A program made the translations under genes and the position numbers. Under the pieces are notes generated by a model, which ran no database searches, was not told the DNA's origin, and saw nothing but the letters and a program-made list of their open reading frames with translations. Below are positions 5,240-42,615 of a stretch of DNA of 64,000 nucleotides, piece after piece. Numbering within the stretch: position 1 is the first letter of the stretch; every line of letters begins with the position of its first letter. The stretch lies in contig OZ240215.1 in the NCBI GenBank assembly GCA_965197585.1, positions 2,016,001 to 2,080,000 of the forward strand. Direction: 5' to 3'. This DNA comes from Dehalococcoidia bacterium. Lineage in GTDB: Bacteria > Chloroflexota > Dehalococcoidia > Plut-88900.

Positions 5240-7069
5240 TTGGTTTCAAGACAGTCCAATCCCCCAAGAAGCAGGACGGTCCGACAAGGTGTTAACGTCG
5301 AGACCCGGCCGGTGTCTGGGCCTCCCCTGGAGATCCCGAGCGCCATAGCGGTCCAGTCCTTATCCGAACTCATGCGGGCCAGCGGCATCGAGGTCATCAA
5401 GCAGTTGATGCGCCGCGGGGTAATGGCGAATATCACCCAGGTGATCGACTACGAGACCGCCTCTATCATCGCCACAGACTTTGGTTTCTCTCCACAACTA
5501 GAGGAGAGAAAGGGCACGAGTGTCAGGGATACCAGCGACGCGGAAGCAGCGGACGAAGATGAAAATCTCGTGCCGCGGGCCCCGATAGTCACCATCCTGG
5601 GCCACGTAGACCACGGAAAGACTTCGCTGCTGGACGTTATCAGAAACACCTCCGTTACCACTTCCGAAAAGGGAGGCATAACCCAGCACATCGGCGCCTA
5701 CCAGGTGAGCGTGGACGGTCAGCCCGTCACCTTCCTGGACACGCCGGGCCACCAGGCCTTTACGGCCATGAGGGCCCGCGGGGCCCAGGTAACGGACATA
5801 GCTATCCTAGTTGTTGCCGCGGACGACGGCGTAATGCCGCAAACCCGAGAGGCCATTGACCACGCCAAGGCGGCGAAGGTCCCGATCATCGTAGCCATAA
5901 ACAAGATGGACATGGCCGGGGCCAATCCGGACCGAATAAAACAGCAGCTTTCCGAACTAGGGCTTATCCCGGAGGAGTGGGGCGGGGACACGATAGTCGT
6001 GCCCTTATCGGCGAAAACCCAGGAGGGGATACCGGACCTGCTGGAAAACATCGTCCTGGTCGCCGAAGTAGGCGAGTTGAAGAGCAATCCGGATGGGATG
6101 GCCCGGGGCGTAGTGGTTGAGGCTAAGCTGGACTCGGCCAGAGGACCTATCGCCACCGTGTTAATCCAATCCGGCACCCTAAAGGCGGGAGATCGATTCT
6201 TCGCCGGTGAGACGAAGGGTAAAGTCCGCGCCCTGTTCGACCATCAGGGGCAGCGGCTCTGGGAGGCCGGCCCCGCATTCCCCGTCGAGGTGCTGGGGTT
6301 CGACAGCGTACCCAGGACGGGGGACATCTTGACCGGTGTGGAGGCGGGGCGGAAGTCTACCTCTGCTTCAGAGCGGCGTGAGCGTCAGATGGCAGTCCGG
6401 GACGAATGGCACGGTGACGCCGAGGCCCTCCAAGCCCAGGTCCGTGTCGGTTACAGCAAGGAGCTCAACGTAATCCTGAAGACTGACGTGGAGGGCAGCG
6501 GAGAGGCACTGCGAAGCGCCCTGGAAGATCTATCCACGGATGAGGTGGCGGTCAAGATCATTCGCACCAGCAGTGGAATAGTCACCGAGACAGACGTACT
6601 TCTAGCTTCCGCCTCTGACGCAGTGATCCTGGGATTCAACACCAAGGACGATGCCGGGGCCAGGCGATTGGCCGACCTTGAGGATGTGAACATCCGCCAC
6701 TATGACATCATCTACGGCATGCTGGACTTCGTTTCCGCCGCCGTATCCGGGATGCTGGAGCCGGTCTACAAGGAGACGGTAGAGGCAAGGGCGTTGGTCA
6801 AGGAAGTGTTCGAGGTGAAGGGCGGCAAGGCGGCAGGTATAGGCGTAGGCGAAGGCAGGTTGAGCCGCAACGCTCTGATCCGCGTCTTACGGAAGGGCAG
6901 CGTAGTCCACGAGGGCAGGATAAAGAGCTTGCGCCACTTCAAGGACAACGTCAGGGAGATCGCCTCGGGGTCCGAGGGAGGCCTCGGGTTGGACGGGTTC
7001 GACAGCTTCGAAGCCGGAGACGAATTGGTCGCCTTCCGCAAAGAGCTAGTTCCCCCCACAGCCAACTGA
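5240..7069 (+). CDS. infB: Translation initiation factor IF-2 (short N-terminus)
   Basis: [42 protein letters not shown]. Confidence 0.98.
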
Positions 7070-40307: not shown

Positions 40308-40394
40308 GCCGAGGTGGCGGAATTGGCAGACGCGACGGACTTAAAATCCGTTGGGAGTACTCCCATAAGGGTTCGAGTCCCTTCCTCGGCACCA
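40308..40394 (+). tRNA. tRNA-Leu(TAA)
   Basis: GCCGAGG...ACGGA-CTTAAAA-TCCGT, variable arm, CCTCGGCACCA. Confidence 0.96.
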
Positions 40395-40416
40395 GGCTTG
40401 GTATACTGGGCACAAT

Positions 40417-40692
40417 GTGTATGAATCAAAGCTAGGATACGAATGGGACGAAACTAAACGGAGAACTAATCTGGCCAAGCATCAAATGAACTTTGAAATG
40501 ATGGCCGACTTTGAATGGGGAAATGCCCTGATAGAGCGGAGCGACCGGCATGGAGAGATCCGATGGTCGGCCATCGGATACATCGGAGTCCGCATTTGCC
40601 ATGTTGCTTTTACTATGCGAGACGAAAACATTCGTATCATTAGCCTGAGGGCCGCAAAATCCAGTGAGGTGAGAAGATATGCCAAAGCTTAA
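40417..40692 (+). CDS. brnT: BrnT-family toxin (DUF497)
   Basis: YEWDETKRRTNLAKH...E.RW.AIG...V.FT.R...IRIISLR.A...E..RY; TG-TATACT just upstream suggests a near-leaderless mRNA. Confidence 0.9.
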   Translation: MYESKLGYEWDETKRRTNLAKHQMNFEMMADFEWGNALIERSDRHGEIRWSAIGYIGVRICHVAFTMRDENIRIISLRAAKSSEVRRYAKA

Positions 40693-40957
40693 ACCCGAAA
40701 CCGTATGGCCGCAGCCTGCAAAGATGCACCTCACTGAGAAAGACCTTGAGGAGATAGCCACCGGCCCGATGACATATGGGCAGATCAAAGAAAAGTATGG
40801 TGAAGAGGTAGCTATCGATGTGGGGATAGCTAGGGACCCAGACACCCGTGAATGGACCGACGAGGACTTCTCACGAGCCCAACCCGCCGAAAAGGCCCTA
40901 CCCCACGTTGTTGAACATTGGCGCCGAGCCCAAGCCAAGAAAGAAGCTATGGCTTAG
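40679..40957 (+). CDS. BrnA-like antitoxin, apparently lacking the C-terminal RHH domain
   Basis: Overlaps brnT; has DPDTREWTDEDFSRA.P but ends before any RLD..V...GYQTR.N motif. Confidence 0.7.
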   Translation: MPKLKPETVWPQPAKMHLTEKDLEEIATGPMTYGQIKEKYGEEVAIDVGIARDPDTREWTDEDFSRAQPAEKALPHVVEHWRRAQAKKEAMA

Positions 40958-41027
40958 CCAGATCCTTAGGGATGATGATCGCTGCAGAGGTGATGTTGTG
41001 AGTGTAGCGCAGTGGCAGACGCTACAC

Positions 41028-41083
41028 ACTTAAAATCCGTTGGGAGTACTCCCGTAAGGGTTCGAGTCCCTTCCTCGGCACCA
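41028..41083 (+). repeat. Duplicated 3' part of tRNA-Leu(TAA) (attR-like)
   Basis: ACTTAAAATCCGTTGGGAGTACTCCCGTAAGGGTTCGAGTCCCTTCCTCGGCACCA. Confidence 0.95.
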
Positions 41084-41154
41084 AGGAATTTAAGGCTAAT
41101 GAAATCGCCAGATGGTATAACATAAGCCAATCTTTAGAGAAAGGAGGATACCTA

Positions 41155-41280
41155 ATGGCTGGCTCTAAAACGCTTGGGAAGAAGGGTGGAGGCGGAAGCA
41201 AGGGCGGTGGGAATCCAAACTACCCGAGTACAACGGGTAACCCGTCAGGTGGTGGCAGAGGCAACGAGCCCAAGGGATAA
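41155..41280 (+). CDS. 41-aa Gly-rich microprotein (absent from the ORF track)
   Basis: AAGGAGG SD 7 nt before ATG; MAGSKTLGKKGGGGSKGGGNPNYPSTTGNPSGGGRGNEPKG*; TG-TATAAC upstream and a hairpin downstream. Confidence 0.8.
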   Translation: MAGSKTLGKKGGGGSKGGGNPNYPSTTGNPSGGGRGNEPKG

Positions 41281-41301
41281 ATAGGGGGCTCGTTTTTGAC
41301 C

Positions 41302-41334
41302 GAGGCCGGTCCCGACTGTGTCGGGACCGGCCTC
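41302..41334 (+). terminator. Terminator-like hairpin after the microprotein gene
   Basis: GAGGCCGGTCCCGAC-TGT-GTCGGGACCGGCCTC followed by ATTT. Confidence 0.75.
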
Positions 41335-41568
41335 ATTTACTATCTCTGCTTGGGGGGCAGGCCAGGCTTGCGAGTTTGAGGTGAACCGTGCGAGCCCTTA
41401 ACCAATACCCTAGCCATTACAGTACTCCAGCCAAACTTCTACACGGATAGATTAGAACTTATATTGATTCGTGCGGAAATAAATGGCACTGAGGAACTGG
41501 GCCGAATGTTGAAGAGACAAAACGACAATGGGGCCAATGAGCAAAACATTTACCGTTCTAGACTCTCC

Positions 41569-42510
41569 CTAATCCGGCCTCAGCACATTTATCGGATTCC
41601 CGTTCAGATAAGCTCGAATCGTGTCGGCGGCAATGTTGGTCATGTTAATTATGGCGGCGGGTGTGTCGTAGGCAATGTGGGGCGTGATGACTACGTTGTC
41701 GAAGTGGCGGAGGGGTTCGTCGGTGGCGGGTTCTTCGGCGTAGACGTCGGTGGCGAATCCTGCCAGCCGCCCCGACTCCAATGCCTTTAAAACCGCGTCC
41801 TGCTGCACAACCTGGCCCCGAGACACGTTGACCAGGTAGGCCCCATCCTTCATCAACCCAAGTTCCCGATCGCCGATAATTCCCATTGTGCCGTCGTTGA
41901 GCACCGGCGCGAGTTGGATGTAATCTGACCGAGACATCAGCTCGTCCAGGCCGACGAACTCGACGTTGTGGGCCTTGGCCCGCTCTTCCGATGGGTTCCT
42001 GGTAGTGCAAATTACATTCATCCCCAACCCGTTCCCGATGGCCGCCAGCTCCGACCCCAGCCCCCCGAGCCCCAGGATGCCCATGGTTGCGCTGCGGATG
42101 GGGGTACCGCTGAACCGTTCCCACTTGTTCTCCCTCATCGATTTGTCGGCTTTGACCACCTGCCGTGCGAGGGCCAGCATCAGGGCAATCCCGTGCTCTG
42201 CGACCGCCTCATCACCATAGTGCGGTGTGTTACACAGGGTGATCCCCTTGCTCCAGGCGTACTTCATGTCGATCTGGGTCTGCGGCCCGATGCCAAGGTA
42301 GCAGATCATCTTCAAGTCGGGCATGGCATCAAGCATTTCGTGGGTAAGGTTAATCCAGCTCCAGCAGATGGCCTCGGCGCCGTGGCAGCGCTCGACGAAA
42401 ACCTCGGGGGAAGGGAGGTCGTAAAAGTAGCTGGCGTCGGCCTCTCCGGCGAAAGGGTCACTTTCGAAAGGGATCATCCCTCCCAAGTCTGCGAAAACCA
42501 CCTTTTTCAT
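41569..42510 (-). CDS. D-isomer-specific 2-hydroxyacid dehydrogenase
   Basis: AVAEH, GILGLGGLG, LVNVSRG, DVYAEEP, ITPHIA. Confidence 0.92.
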   Translation of the reverse strand: MKKVVFADLGGMIPFESDPFAGEADASYFYDLPSPEVFVERCHGAEAICWSWINLTHEMLDAMPDLKMICYLGIGPQTQIDMKYAWSKGITLCNTPHYGDEAVAEHGIALMLALARQVVKADKSMRENKWERFSGTPIRSATMGILGLGGLGSELAAIGNGLGMNVICTTRNPSEERAKAHNVEFVGLDELMSRSDYIQLAPVLNDGTMGIIGDRELGLMKDGAYLVNVSRGQVVQQDAVLKALESGRLAGFATDVYAEEPATDEPLRHFDNVVITPHIAYDTPAAIINMTNIAADTIRAYLNGNPINVLRPD

Positions 42511-42615
42511 AATGCAATCCTCCGGGTGAATGACTAGGCTGATGGGTACCTCGCCCCGCCATTGTAATACAGCGGAGACCGGCAACAAGGCCGTATTCGG
42601 GGGCTACCTGGTGAC

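Follow-up and report, generated by a model that had tools for sequence, protein, structure and literature searches.

The question raised by this locus is whether a very short open reading frame, standing just downstream of a duplicated tRNA end, is a real gene and, if so, what kind of protein it encodes. The window analysed is a stretch of 64,000 nucleotides from a Dehalococcoidia bacterium (contig OZ240215.1), in which an earlier note had pointed to a self-contained transcription unit for a 41-residue Gly-rich micro-protein beside a tRNA att repeat. The features concerned, all on the forward strand, are as follows.

41013-41091 (+), a 3' copy of tRNA-Leu(taa) (40308-40394); the right-hand direct repeat bounding the BrnT/BrnA islet (40417-40957), and context rather than part of the unit
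41113-41121 (+), extended -10-like sequence TGGTATAAC (TG-n-TATAAC), a candidate promoter
41141-41147 (+), Shine-Dalgarno sequence AAGGAGG, 7 nt before the ATG
41155-41280 (+), coding sequence of the 41-residue micro-protein including the stop, with a G/K-rich N-tail (residues 1-19) and the conserved C-terminal module NPNYPSTTGNPSGGGRGNEPKG
41302-41334 (+), a 15-bp G+C-rich, terminator-like hairpin, followed by ATTTACTATC

The observation made in the earlier note is confirmed, as every element that it named is present in the sequence and the ORF has exactly the translation given there. The hairpin has 15 pairs, 12 of them G-C, and a 3-nt loop, and its folding energy is -38.7 kcal/mol (z = -6.15), which none of 200 shuffled sequences reached. 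A comparable hairpin follows the orthologous ORF in a congener, G020. The tRNA repeat (window ~41013-41091) is real, and the ORF starts about 65-70 nt after it. On the other hand, a two-hexamer sigma-70 scan found no promoter upstream of the ORF and the -35 is poor by eye, so that the extended -10 is a sequence match only and its function is inferred. Similarly, AAGGAGG followed by ATG occurs twice in the window against 0.84 expected, and 24 of 100 shuffles reach two, so the local signals alone are not beyond chance. What puts the ORF beyond chance is the family to which it belongs.

The recurrence of PSTTGNPSGGGRGN peptides in diverse bacteria, which the earlier note had suggested, is verified. 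Of 558 pattern hits in species genomes 257 were confirmed, as were 31 of 38 in viral contigs and at least 261 of at least 594 in metagenomes. Judged from their titles, 80 of the genome loci belong to Chloroflexota (18), Bacteroidota (16), Gamma/Betaproteobacteria (12), Myxococcota (8), Campylobacterota (7), Verrucomicrobiota (6), Planctomycetota (5), Binatia (4) and one each of four other groups, including a contig binned to Bathyarchaeia. The family is defined by the near-invariant module [N/G]-[Y/W/x]-P-S-T-T-G-N-P-S-G-G-G-R-G-N-x-P-K. The window protein carries the core P-S-T-T-G-N-P-S-G-G-G-R-G-N with the flanking N-P-N-Y and x-P-K exactly, scores E = 2.7e-15 against the family profile in its own genome, and is encoded by a single copy in that 3.43-Mb genome. 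Although the Arg and flanking residues lie outside the search pattern, GGRG follows the pattern in 129 of 192 occurrences. Of 112 family ORFs, 102 are 110 residues or shorter, with a median of 44, and an SD of at least 4 nt precedes the chosen start in 79 of these 102, a count biased upward as the start was chosen partly by SD. With its 41 residues, low-complexity G/K tail and own ribosome-binding site the window protein is thus a free-standing small ORF of the family type, which is about 25-75 residues long.

A lack of homologues with synonymous-site variation had been set in the earlier note as what could refute the gene; homologues are abundant and show such variation. In the 80 genome loci, 63 occurrences of the identical 14-residue core are written by 59 distinct DNA sequences, codon-position entropies are 0.137/0.069/1.633, third codon positions being nearly saturated while positions 1 and 2 are fixed, the six-fold degenerate residues switch codon families (Ser AGY/TCN and Arg AGR/CGN), and pairwise nucleotide identity falls to 57% with identical peptide. 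Purifying selection therefore acts on the protein. Evidence from RNA is much thinner. Among four RNA-library runs, as assembled contigs, most coverage came from tRNAs of other organisms and nothing covered 41204-41340, which shows nothing either way; one 207-nt contig (depth 2.6, 1 mismatch) spans 40997-41203 and reaches the first 49 nt of the ORF, but DNA carry-over cannot be excluded. That the gene is highly expressed, as the earlier note inferred, was not shown.

The family has no name in the collections examined. The window protein matched no family in Pfam (E <= 1), NCBIfam (E <= 10), PHROGs (E <= 1) or PADLOC-DB 2.0 (E <= 1, a library from 2023), and seven fused or longer relatives likewise matched no PADLOC model. 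A profile search of the PDB gave no hit at E <= 10, a tblastn search of 50,697 deposited phage genomes gave no match, and the ESM Atlas returned only unnamed "hypothetical" clusters with recognition below the bar of the method. Every source name seen for the family was "hypothetical protein". Motif substrings were found in no paper, although an earlier mention cannot be excluded as about 1.7 million PMC articles and all supplements lie outside such a search. Among the fusion partners, those designated L036, L044, L012, L110, P0043, P0044 and P0046 had no Pfam hit, the only exception being DUF7380 in L163; P0046 gave one chance-level hit in the PDB (E = 0.65).

The interpretation offered in the earlier note, a micro-protein family of mobile or defence loci acting as nucleic-acid binder, peptide precursor or toxin-antitoxin modulator, is only partly supported. 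An uncharacterised family finds support, a link to mobile elements finds partial support in the many copies that sit in mobile contexts, and of the three roles nucleic-acid binding is the one to which the evidence leans. The gene is accessory, being present in 19 of 301 sampled genomes of its class and in 4 of 8 congeners, and it sits in a hypervariable slot between a tRNA cluster and a dehydrogenase gene that holds different small cassettes in each congener. The adjacent BrnTA pair is gained and lost independently: G020 has the micro-ORF but neither BrnTA nor the second tRNA copy, whereas another congener, G217, has BrnTA (88-90% identity) without the micro-ORF, and no BrnT or BrnA family appeared among the top families of 136 immediate neighbours elsewhere. 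A modulator of this toxin-antitoxin system is accordingly not supported. Adjacency to tRNA or att sites is not a family trait, as among 60 loci scanned only one (L003), which mirrors the window, has the tRNA-cluster arrangement. Nor is any neighbouring gene conserved; 741 neighbouring ORFs clustered into groups spanning at most 6 of 80 loci, all within lineages, and the top Pfam family covered 3 of the 136 immediate neighbours. In many chromosomal loci the neighbours are ordinary housekeeping genes. A shared regulator in Bacteroidota was also considered, but the two upstream groups of 250-residue proteins are unrelated.

The motif is portable. It occurs at N-termini, at C-termini and in tandem, the tandem forms being the family members P0032, P0035-37 and P0040. 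On enterobacterial plasmids of 2.3-5.7 kb, beside mobilisation and restriction-modification genes, C-terminal copies occur on a predicted 4-helix domain, for which Foldseek gave nothing in the PDB at E <= 0.001 and only generic helical bundles; AlphaFold leaves the motif itself disordered (pLDDT < 50). In Marinobacter elements the motif stays invariant while the rest of the fusion protein falls to 29% identity, and the gene lies beside a Phage_GPA replication initiator. The ESM Atlas gave no usable feature hit for the Marinobacter protein and structure rows with TM <= 0.40. Residues 76-167 of its model (pLDDT about 60-80; strands E80-92, E95-101, E106-111, E136-141 and E152-157, helix H113-122) match OB folds of ExoVII, RPA, PriB, SSB, Stn1, polymerase and aaRS anticodon domains with Z 8.3-6.6 across the 50 rows shown, all OB-fold proteins, but the model is of low confidence (mean pLDDT 50.4, 5 sequences) and Z values of about 8 lie in the range where a match may reflect merely a common arrangement.

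Other copies are found in viruses and in rRNA. In phage contig L113 the ORF lies between gp32-like and RecA-like genes on one strand, and gp32 and RecA hits recur among viral neighbours. On the related viral contigs L115 and L116 a eukaryote-type ubiquitin (PF00240, E = 1.1e-31, scanned in L116) is fused through LRLRGG to a K/G tail plus the motif; this ubiquitin fusion occurs on a giant-virus-like contig. A search for NCLDV capsid genes gave 0 of 3 records, but the control was found in none of them and L116 and L107 were not included, so that this is uninformative. In two Helicobacteraceae genomes, among them the Helicobacter isolate of locus L008, divergent versions of 29-35 residues, preceded by AAGGAGG, sit inside the helix-25 intervening sequence of 23S rRNA (model position about 583). 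This location was found in 2 of the 11 motif-bearing Helicobacteraceae genomes and in none of the other loci screened. Similarity of the Helicobacter intervening sequence to other loci is confined to the ORF, which speaks against a mobile DNA unit with conserved flanks. A literature search on intervening sequences of 23S rRNA in Helicobacter found no mention of this ORF in titles or abstract openings, and passages of PMC2672173 mention only transposase ORFs in such sequences.

What the analysis has shown, almost with certainty, is that 41155-41280 is a genuine protein-coding gene, compact and apparently self-contained, of a widespread and unnamed micro-protein family, independent of the BrnTA islet and without a conserved partner gene. 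What the protein does, including any binding, is inferred from context only, and the following view, although the best of those considered, is tentative and somewhat less likely than not. The protein would be intrinsically disordered, with a flexible, mostly cationic G/K tail carrying a rigidly conserved module of Ser, Thr, Asn, Gly and Pro with a single Arg. This module would act as a portable docking peptide for a phosphate-rich, universally conserved target, either nucleic acid itself or a nucleic-acid machine; ssDNA and replication or recombination proteins are slightly preferred over the ribosome or rRNA, each being unlikely on its own, and other such targets very unlikely. The free peptide would coat, compete at or tune that target, and mobile elements would carry it because the target is the same in every host. 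No specific protein partner is claimed.

The lean towards nucleic acid rests on the Marinobacter fusion and its GPA neighbour, the gp32 and RecA neighbours, the copies in 23S rRNA, the ubiquitin fusion, the basic charge of 69 of 102 N-tails, and a resemblance of the core to a Gly/Ser/Thr phosphate-binding loop. Several points weigh against it. The OB-fold match rests on a low-confidence model, the rRNA location is found in only two genomes, the family profile found nothing in the PDB, and AlphaFold leaves the motif disordered. The gp32/RecA adjacency is seen in only a few related phage contigs, and phage early regions are rich in DNA-metabolism genes anyway. A few members argue against a purely cytoplasmic, polyanion-binding role, namely signal-peptide or membrane-anchor forms (L105, L107, P0043) and forms with strongly acidic tails (P0014, P0017, L022, L134).

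A bolder reading, which is not excluded but must be considered unlikely, is that the 14-20-residue module is a cross-domain short linear motif, possibly one of the most conserved free peptides not yet named, docking on the ribosome or the ssDNA/recombination apparatus. It would be spread by mobile elements that have found three separate ways to express it at high level: its own SD-driven mini-gene, the excised intervening sequence of 23S rRNA, which would give a stoichiometry of one per ribosome, and a cleavable ubiquitin fusion in a virus of eukaryotes.

Proteins under 50 residues are routinely missed in annotation, yet the core of this one is as conserved as that of a ribosomal protein and is shared by at least ten bacterial phyla, a contig binned to an archaeon, T4-like and temperate phages, small plasmids and a giant-virus-like contig. 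Such invariance with a patchy, mobile distribution implies a target that is the same in all cells, and finding it could reveal a new handle on a core process. The copies inside 23S rRNA would be a rare case of a conserved protein gene carried by an rRNA intervening sequence. The family is directly testable, as the peptide is short enough to synthesise and cultured carriers exist, such as Pseudomonas cedrina DSM 17516, Flavobacterium odoriferum and Marinobacter xiaoshiensis.

Among other explanations the one that survives best, although unlikely, is a mobile-element accessory ("moron") factor, in which the motif would dock on a conserved host protein rather than on nucleic acid and might blunt an immune, SOS or stress response or help in competition, chromosomal copies being leftovers or domesticated. 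The patchy distribution, which also includes 11 of 151 Helicobacteraceae, agrees with this, as do copies on Pseudomonas prophage-like contigs beside a GH19 lysin and tail-fibre assembly genes (7 and 3 of 96 viral neighbours), in T4-like records with Gp23 (2 of 4 searched), on the enterobacterial plasmids, next to an IS3 transposase or a GPA replicase, and in the variable slot of the window. Against it stand the lack of any PADLOC or PHROG match, the absence from the deposited phage genomes and the many loci with only housekeeping neighbours; moreover, a protein target identical from Chloroflexota to a giant-virus host has to be named and has not been. A precursor or substrate peptide, modified or consumed by an enzyme encoded elsewhere to give a ribosomal natural product or cofactor in the manner of PqqA or MftA, or serving as a decoy substrate, is very unlikely. 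The invariant core of a tiny ORF, the variable leader-like N-part, the multi-core tandem forms and the presence of Ser, Thr, Tyr/Trp and Asn, typical sites of modification, would fit. However, no maturase-like neighbour is conserved (radical SAM hits, 3 of 136, belong to one Dehalococcoidia lineage and carry an HHH domain), a 2,364-bp plasmid carries the motif gene with only one other annotated gene, the aromatic position is freely replaced by L, A, G, M, K or C, and the motif also stands at the N-terminus of proteins of 260-350 residues. A generic hydrophilin-like protectant, acting by bulk properties in stress, desiccation or cold, is about equally improbable; the protein is small, Gly-rich and very hydrophilic and, in the motif tail, predicted to be disordered, but bulk protectants do not need 14 invariant residues across phyla, and use as a terminal tag on folded domains and by lytic phages fits poorly. 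That the conserved unit is a DNA or RNA element with an incidental ORF, as its shortness, the tRNA genes here and the rRNA location in two genomes might suggest, is effectively refuted by the codon pattern, and no Rfam family other than the rRNA and tRNAs matched the loci searched.

Comparison with known systems gives partial resemblances only. KGG-repeat proteins and YciG-like hydrophilins are likewise small, Gly-rich, hydrophilic and disordered, but neither their model nor any other in Pfam or NCBIfam matched at the above thresholds, and sequence constraint is far stricter here. AT-hook and RGG-type minor-groove or RNA-binding peptides appear to share a Gly-flanked Arg followed by Pro-Lys-Lys (GRGNxPKK) in a disordered cationic chain, but the micro-protein has a single Arg, no R-G-R-P core and no Pfam hit. 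S23p, of Leptospira and Coxiella, is also an ORF embedded in a 23S rRNA intervening sequence, but it is reported to sit in helix 45 and may not be made (PMC4990558), while the present copies sit at the helix-25 site with a strong SD and the family has no Pfam match, either to the four-helix S23p domain or to any other. In SSB-type proteins a disordered Gly/Pro/Gln-rich tail ends in a short docking tip, and the Marinobacter proteins join a predicted OB-fold-like domain, from a weak model, by a low-complexity, partly acidic linker to a short conserved terminal peptide, while phage copies lie beside gp32; the order is reversed, the tip being N-terminal, and it is neutral to basic rather than acidic and hydrophobic. 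The ribosomal proteins eL40 and eS31 are small, basic, associated with a nucleic-acid machine and made as cleavable ubiquitin fusions, as L115 and L116 may suggest for the motif, but there is no sequence or Pfam similarity and no zinc ribbon, and the fusion is seen on these two contigs only. Finally, in the A3 motif of adenylate-forming enzymes the Gly/Ser/Thr loop binds phosphate; the micro-protein has no enzyme domain, lacks the Gly before TT and the Lys, and does not appear to satisfy the PROSITE signature, so that this is a resemblance only, YPSTTGNPSG comparing with YTSGTTGNPKG in an ORF of this same genome that reads YTSGTTGNPKGV.

The local elements described in the earlier note are all present in the sequence, and the observation as such holds. 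In the order in which they occur, the features of the region are:

40308-40394, tRNA-Leu(taa), the last gene of a cluster of five tRNA genes; it is followed by BrnT (PF04365, E = 1.3e-21) and a weak BrnA match (E = 0.0061, below the Pfam cut-off)
41013-41091, a copy of the 3' ~71-79 nt of that tRNA
41113-41121, TGGTATAAC, an extended -10-like sequence
41141-41147, AAGGAGG, a Shine-Dalgarno (SD) sequence
41155..41280, the ORF, with its ATG at 41155, translating as MAGSKTLGKKGGGGSKGGGNPNYPSTTGNPSGGGRGNEPKG
41302-41334, a hairpin of 15 bp, 12 of them G-C, with a folding energy of -38.7 kcal/mol and z = -6.15 (0 of 200 shuffles fold as well)
41569-42588, a convergent D-2-hydroxyacid dehydrogenase gene

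A simple sigma-70 scan did not call a promoter in front of the ORF, and AAGGAGG followed by ATG is not by itself beyond chance, as 2 were found against 0.84 expected. The local signals are therefore present but not decisive.

The ORF does, however, encode a real, conserved protein. A word-indexed search of 5.8 billion proteins returned 31 small proteins (E <= 10, of 36 candidates), all sharing NPNYPSTTGNPSGGGRGNxPK(K) behind variable N-parts, and an exhaustive phmmer scan of 1.84 billion cluster representatives found 11 at E <= 0.001, including proteins with two or three tandem copies of the module. Scans with back-translated patterns confirmed 257 of 558 hits in one-genome-per-species contigs, 31 of 38 in viral contigs and at least 261 of at least 594 in metagenome contigs. 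In the 80 genome loci kept, the exact 14-residue core occurs 63 times and is written by 59 different DNA sequences, with a mean entropy at codon positions 1, 2, and 3 of 0.137, 0.069, and 1.633, respectively. Ser switches between AGY and TCN and Arg between AGR and CGN, and nucleotide identity falls to 57% with an identical peptide. Although the scan pattern forces part of this result, residues outside the pattern are conserved as well: GGRG follows the pattern in 129 of 192 occurrences and the Arg is essentially invariant. This rules out a DNA- or RNA-level element, and homologs with synonymous-site variation, the absence of which had been set beforehand as grounds for rejecting the gene, were thus found. 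Across 112 motif ORFs in the 111 genome and viral loci, 102 are 110 aa or shorter and the median is 44 aa. Of these 102, 79 have an SD of at least 4 nt, though the start was chosen partly by SD, and the N-tails are basic in 69, neutral in 32 and acidic in 1.

The family is unnamed. No match was found in Pfam, NCBIfam, PHROG or PADLOC, and no PDB chain was found at E <= 10. Every source name seen was "hypothetical protein," and full-text literature searches for substrings of the motif found no paper. As judged from the titles of the 80 genome records, the taxa are Chloroflexota (18), Bacteroidota (16), Gamma/Betaproteobacteria (12), Myxococcota (8), Campylobacterota (7), Verrucomicrobiota (6), Planctomycetota (5), Binatia (4), and one each of Alphaproteobacteria, Desulfobacterota and Deinococcota, along with one contig binned to Bathyarchaeia. 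The spread is patchy, as the motif is found in 19 of 301 sampled genomes of the window's class, in 4 of 8 other genomes of its genus and in 11 of 151 Helicobacteraceae. No gene travels with it: 741 ORFs within 5 kb formed clusters spanning at most 6 of 80 loci, always within one lineage, and among 136 immediate neighbors the commonest Pfam families reached only 3. In one Dehalococcoidia lineage (loci L006, L007, L010, and L011) the micro-ORF is convergent with a radical-SAM plus helix-hairpin-helix protein, encoded about 120 nt downstream on the opposite strand, and follows a conserved 204-aa protein with no Pfam match. tRNA adjacency is peculiar to the window's lineage.

The stretch between tRNA-Leu(taa) and the dehydrogenase gene differs in every congener. 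Genome G120 mirrors the window. G020 has the micro-ORF next to the dehydrogenase gene but neither BrnTA nor a second tRNA copy; its peptide has two substitutions at otherwise near-invariant prolines, and it lies beside a frameshifted small gene. G217 has BrnTA but not the micro-ORF. G059 instead has a DUF5678 plus retropepsin-like aspartyl protease pair (locus L088, 700-1501), and G202 has two other small ORFs, one of 100 aa and one of 66 aa with, by eye, a hydrophobic C-terminal stretch (L090, 2458-3081); the slot in G020 (L083, 3910-4552) holds the frameshifted gene, which is a copy of the 100-aa gene. G102 and G137 carry a second type (NAPSKTGKPSGGGRGNNPPKK) at another locus. The BrnT/BrnA islet itself (within 40308-41091) is 0.69 kb, is bounded by tRNA-Leu(taa) and the 71-79-nt copy of its 3' end, and has no integrase inside; it is present in G120 and G217 but absent in G020, G059, and G202. 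The micro-gene is therefore an accessory cassette in a hot spot, independent of BrnTA and lying outside the repeat-bounded BrnTA islet.

The motif is a portable module, often found on mobile DNA. In Helicobacter sp. 16-1353 (locus L008), the ORF with AAGGAGG lies inside a ~325-nt insertion, bounded by an inverted repeat, at LSU model position ~583, the helix-25 site of 23S rRNA. A second Helicobacteraceae genome (G410, locus L134) has a divergent insertion at the same site which encodes MGRGQPDNDPNNAGYPSTTGNPSGGGRGNDDPDDD, again behind AAGGAGG, and which holds a second small ORF upstream of the motif ORF (L134, 210-335; 41 aa, rich in Asn, Gln, and Gly). No other locus screened is in rRNA. Nearly the same upstream frame and motif ORF occur in assemblies binned to Helicobacteraceae and to Micavibrio (L026, 764-982, and L064, 700-921), which is either one mobile element in two phyla or a binning error; similar contigs are L170, L191, L192, and L194.

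Among viral contigs, L115 and L116 encode ubiquitin ending in LRLRGG, followed directly by a K/G tail and GGWPSTTGNPSGGGRSNN. The ubiquitin domain was scanned in L116 (PF00240, E = 1.1e-31), which also carries patatin, Pox_A22, DUF5759 and DUF5767 genes. Those DUF families and a patatin-like phospholipase are listed in an algal giant virus (PMC12085832), and a virus of eukaryotes is therefore likely, though not proven. Two 192-kb viral records hold T4-type Gp23 and a 28-29-aa version of the ORF. In phage contig L113 the ORF sits between gp32-like and RecA-like genes on one strand, and related contigs show the same families among their neighbors. Pseudomonas prophage-like contigs carry it beside a GH19 lysin (7 of 96 viral neighbors).

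Enterobacterial plasmids of 2.4, 5.0, and 5.7 kb also carry the motif. In two of them it forms the disordered C-terminal tail of a 94-aa protein, the N-domain of which models as a four-helix bundle with pLDDT about 70-78, while the tail is below 50. The smallest, a 2,364-bp Salmonella plasmid (L126), has only two annotated genes, for the 94-aa motif protein and a "NINE protein." The cluster of this 94-aa protein has 147 member sequences and was seen on about 290-305 contigs per listed member. In five Marinobacter proteins the motif is at the N-terminus, followed by an acidic linker and about 220-290 further residues; the motif is invariant while the rest falls to 29% identity, and the neighbors are a Phage_GPA replicase or an IS3 transposase. 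The AlphaFold model is weak overall (mean pLDDT 50.4), but residues 76-167 (pLDDT about 60-80) form a predicted strand-strand-strand-helix-strand-strand unit. In an all-against-representatives structural search the 50 rows shown are all OB-fold proteins, such as ExoVII, RPA, PriB, SSB, Stn1, and aaRS anticodon domains, with Z 8.3-6.6, although Z near 8 can reflect a common arrangement. Rare forms have a signal peptide or membrane anchor (loci L105 and L107, protein P0043), whereas others have a poly-acidic N- or C-part (P0014, P0017, L022, and L134). In L022, from a Candidatus Amphirhobacter genome, there are two adjacent motif genes (5408-5731 and 5905-6066), one with three degenerate tandem modules and the other with a poly-Asp/Glu/Tyr N-part. 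In L163 (1264-3051) the micro-protein frame runs without a stop into a protein of about 500 aa with a DUF7380 domain (E = 3.2e-23), which is either a fusion or the loss of a stop codon.

What the analysis establishes is that this is a translated-type gene under strong purifying selection, that it acts without a dedicated partner gene, that it is usable as a free peptide, as a terminal tag or in tandem, and that it is disordered in models. How it works, including any binding, is inferred. Fourteen invariant residues in a patchy, horizontally spread gene imply a target common to all hosts. The composition points to backbone and hydroxyl contacts with a phosphate-rich ligand, as the core holds only Ser, Thr, Asn, Gly, and Pro with one Arg and the tail is mostly Lys/Gly. 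The core resembles the Gly/Ser/Thr phosphate loop of adenylate-forming enzymes; a 554-aa ORF of this genome, outside the window (G000, contig C1, ~1719887), carries this loop, YTSGTTGNPKGV, and its TTGNP.G core echoes the micro-protein motif. Reading the module in triplets (NPN YPS TTG NPS GGG RGN EPK) puts Pro or Gly at most middle positions, and it is tempting to speculate that this would suit an extended polyproline-II-like rod. The contextual hints point to nucleic-acid machinery, some to ssDNA and replication or recombination (the predicted OB-fold fusion, gp32/RecA, the GPA replicase and the mobilizable plasmids) and others to the ribosome (the rRNA insertions, the ubiquitin fusion and the tRNA-cluster slot).

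It is therefore tentatively suggested, as the favored reading but with less than even confidence, that the module is a docking peptide for nucleic acid or a universal nucleic-acid machine. The secreted and acidic members are the main observations that this reading does not explain. The main rival, a mobile-element factor docking on a conserved host protein, is considered possible but less likely. A precursor or substrate peptide and a bulk protectant are both improbable, the former marginally less so, and that the conserved unit is not a protein can practically be dismissed. The remaining likelihood belongs to something not yet thought of. By analogy, the family would work somewhat like a ubiquitin-extension ribosomal protein, an SSB docking tip, or an AT-hook/RGG peptide, and its rRNA-borne copies recall S23p; it does not fulfill the membership criteria of S23p and is not known to fulfill those of the others. 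The interpretation in the earlier note, that of an uncharacterized microprotein family of mobile or defense loci acting as a nucleic-acid binder, peptide precursor or toxin-antitoxin modulator, is only partly supported, as membership of toxin-antitoxin systems, of peptide precursors and of defense systems was tested and the criteria were not fulfilled. The family is regarded as a new kind of conserved micro-protein, of high interest because it is so conserved, so widespread, unnamed and easy to test.

With respect to expression, contigs from four RNA-library runs were compared with the region. One contig from a run labeled sponge metagenome spans 40997-41203 with one mismatch at depth 2.6 and runs from the tRNA copy into the first 49 nt of the ORF. 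This is only a weak hint of transcription, because DNA carry-over is possible. Other near-identical contigs cover BrnT/BrnA (40474-40916) and occur in two RNA-library runs (X1 and X2) labeled sponge metagenome.
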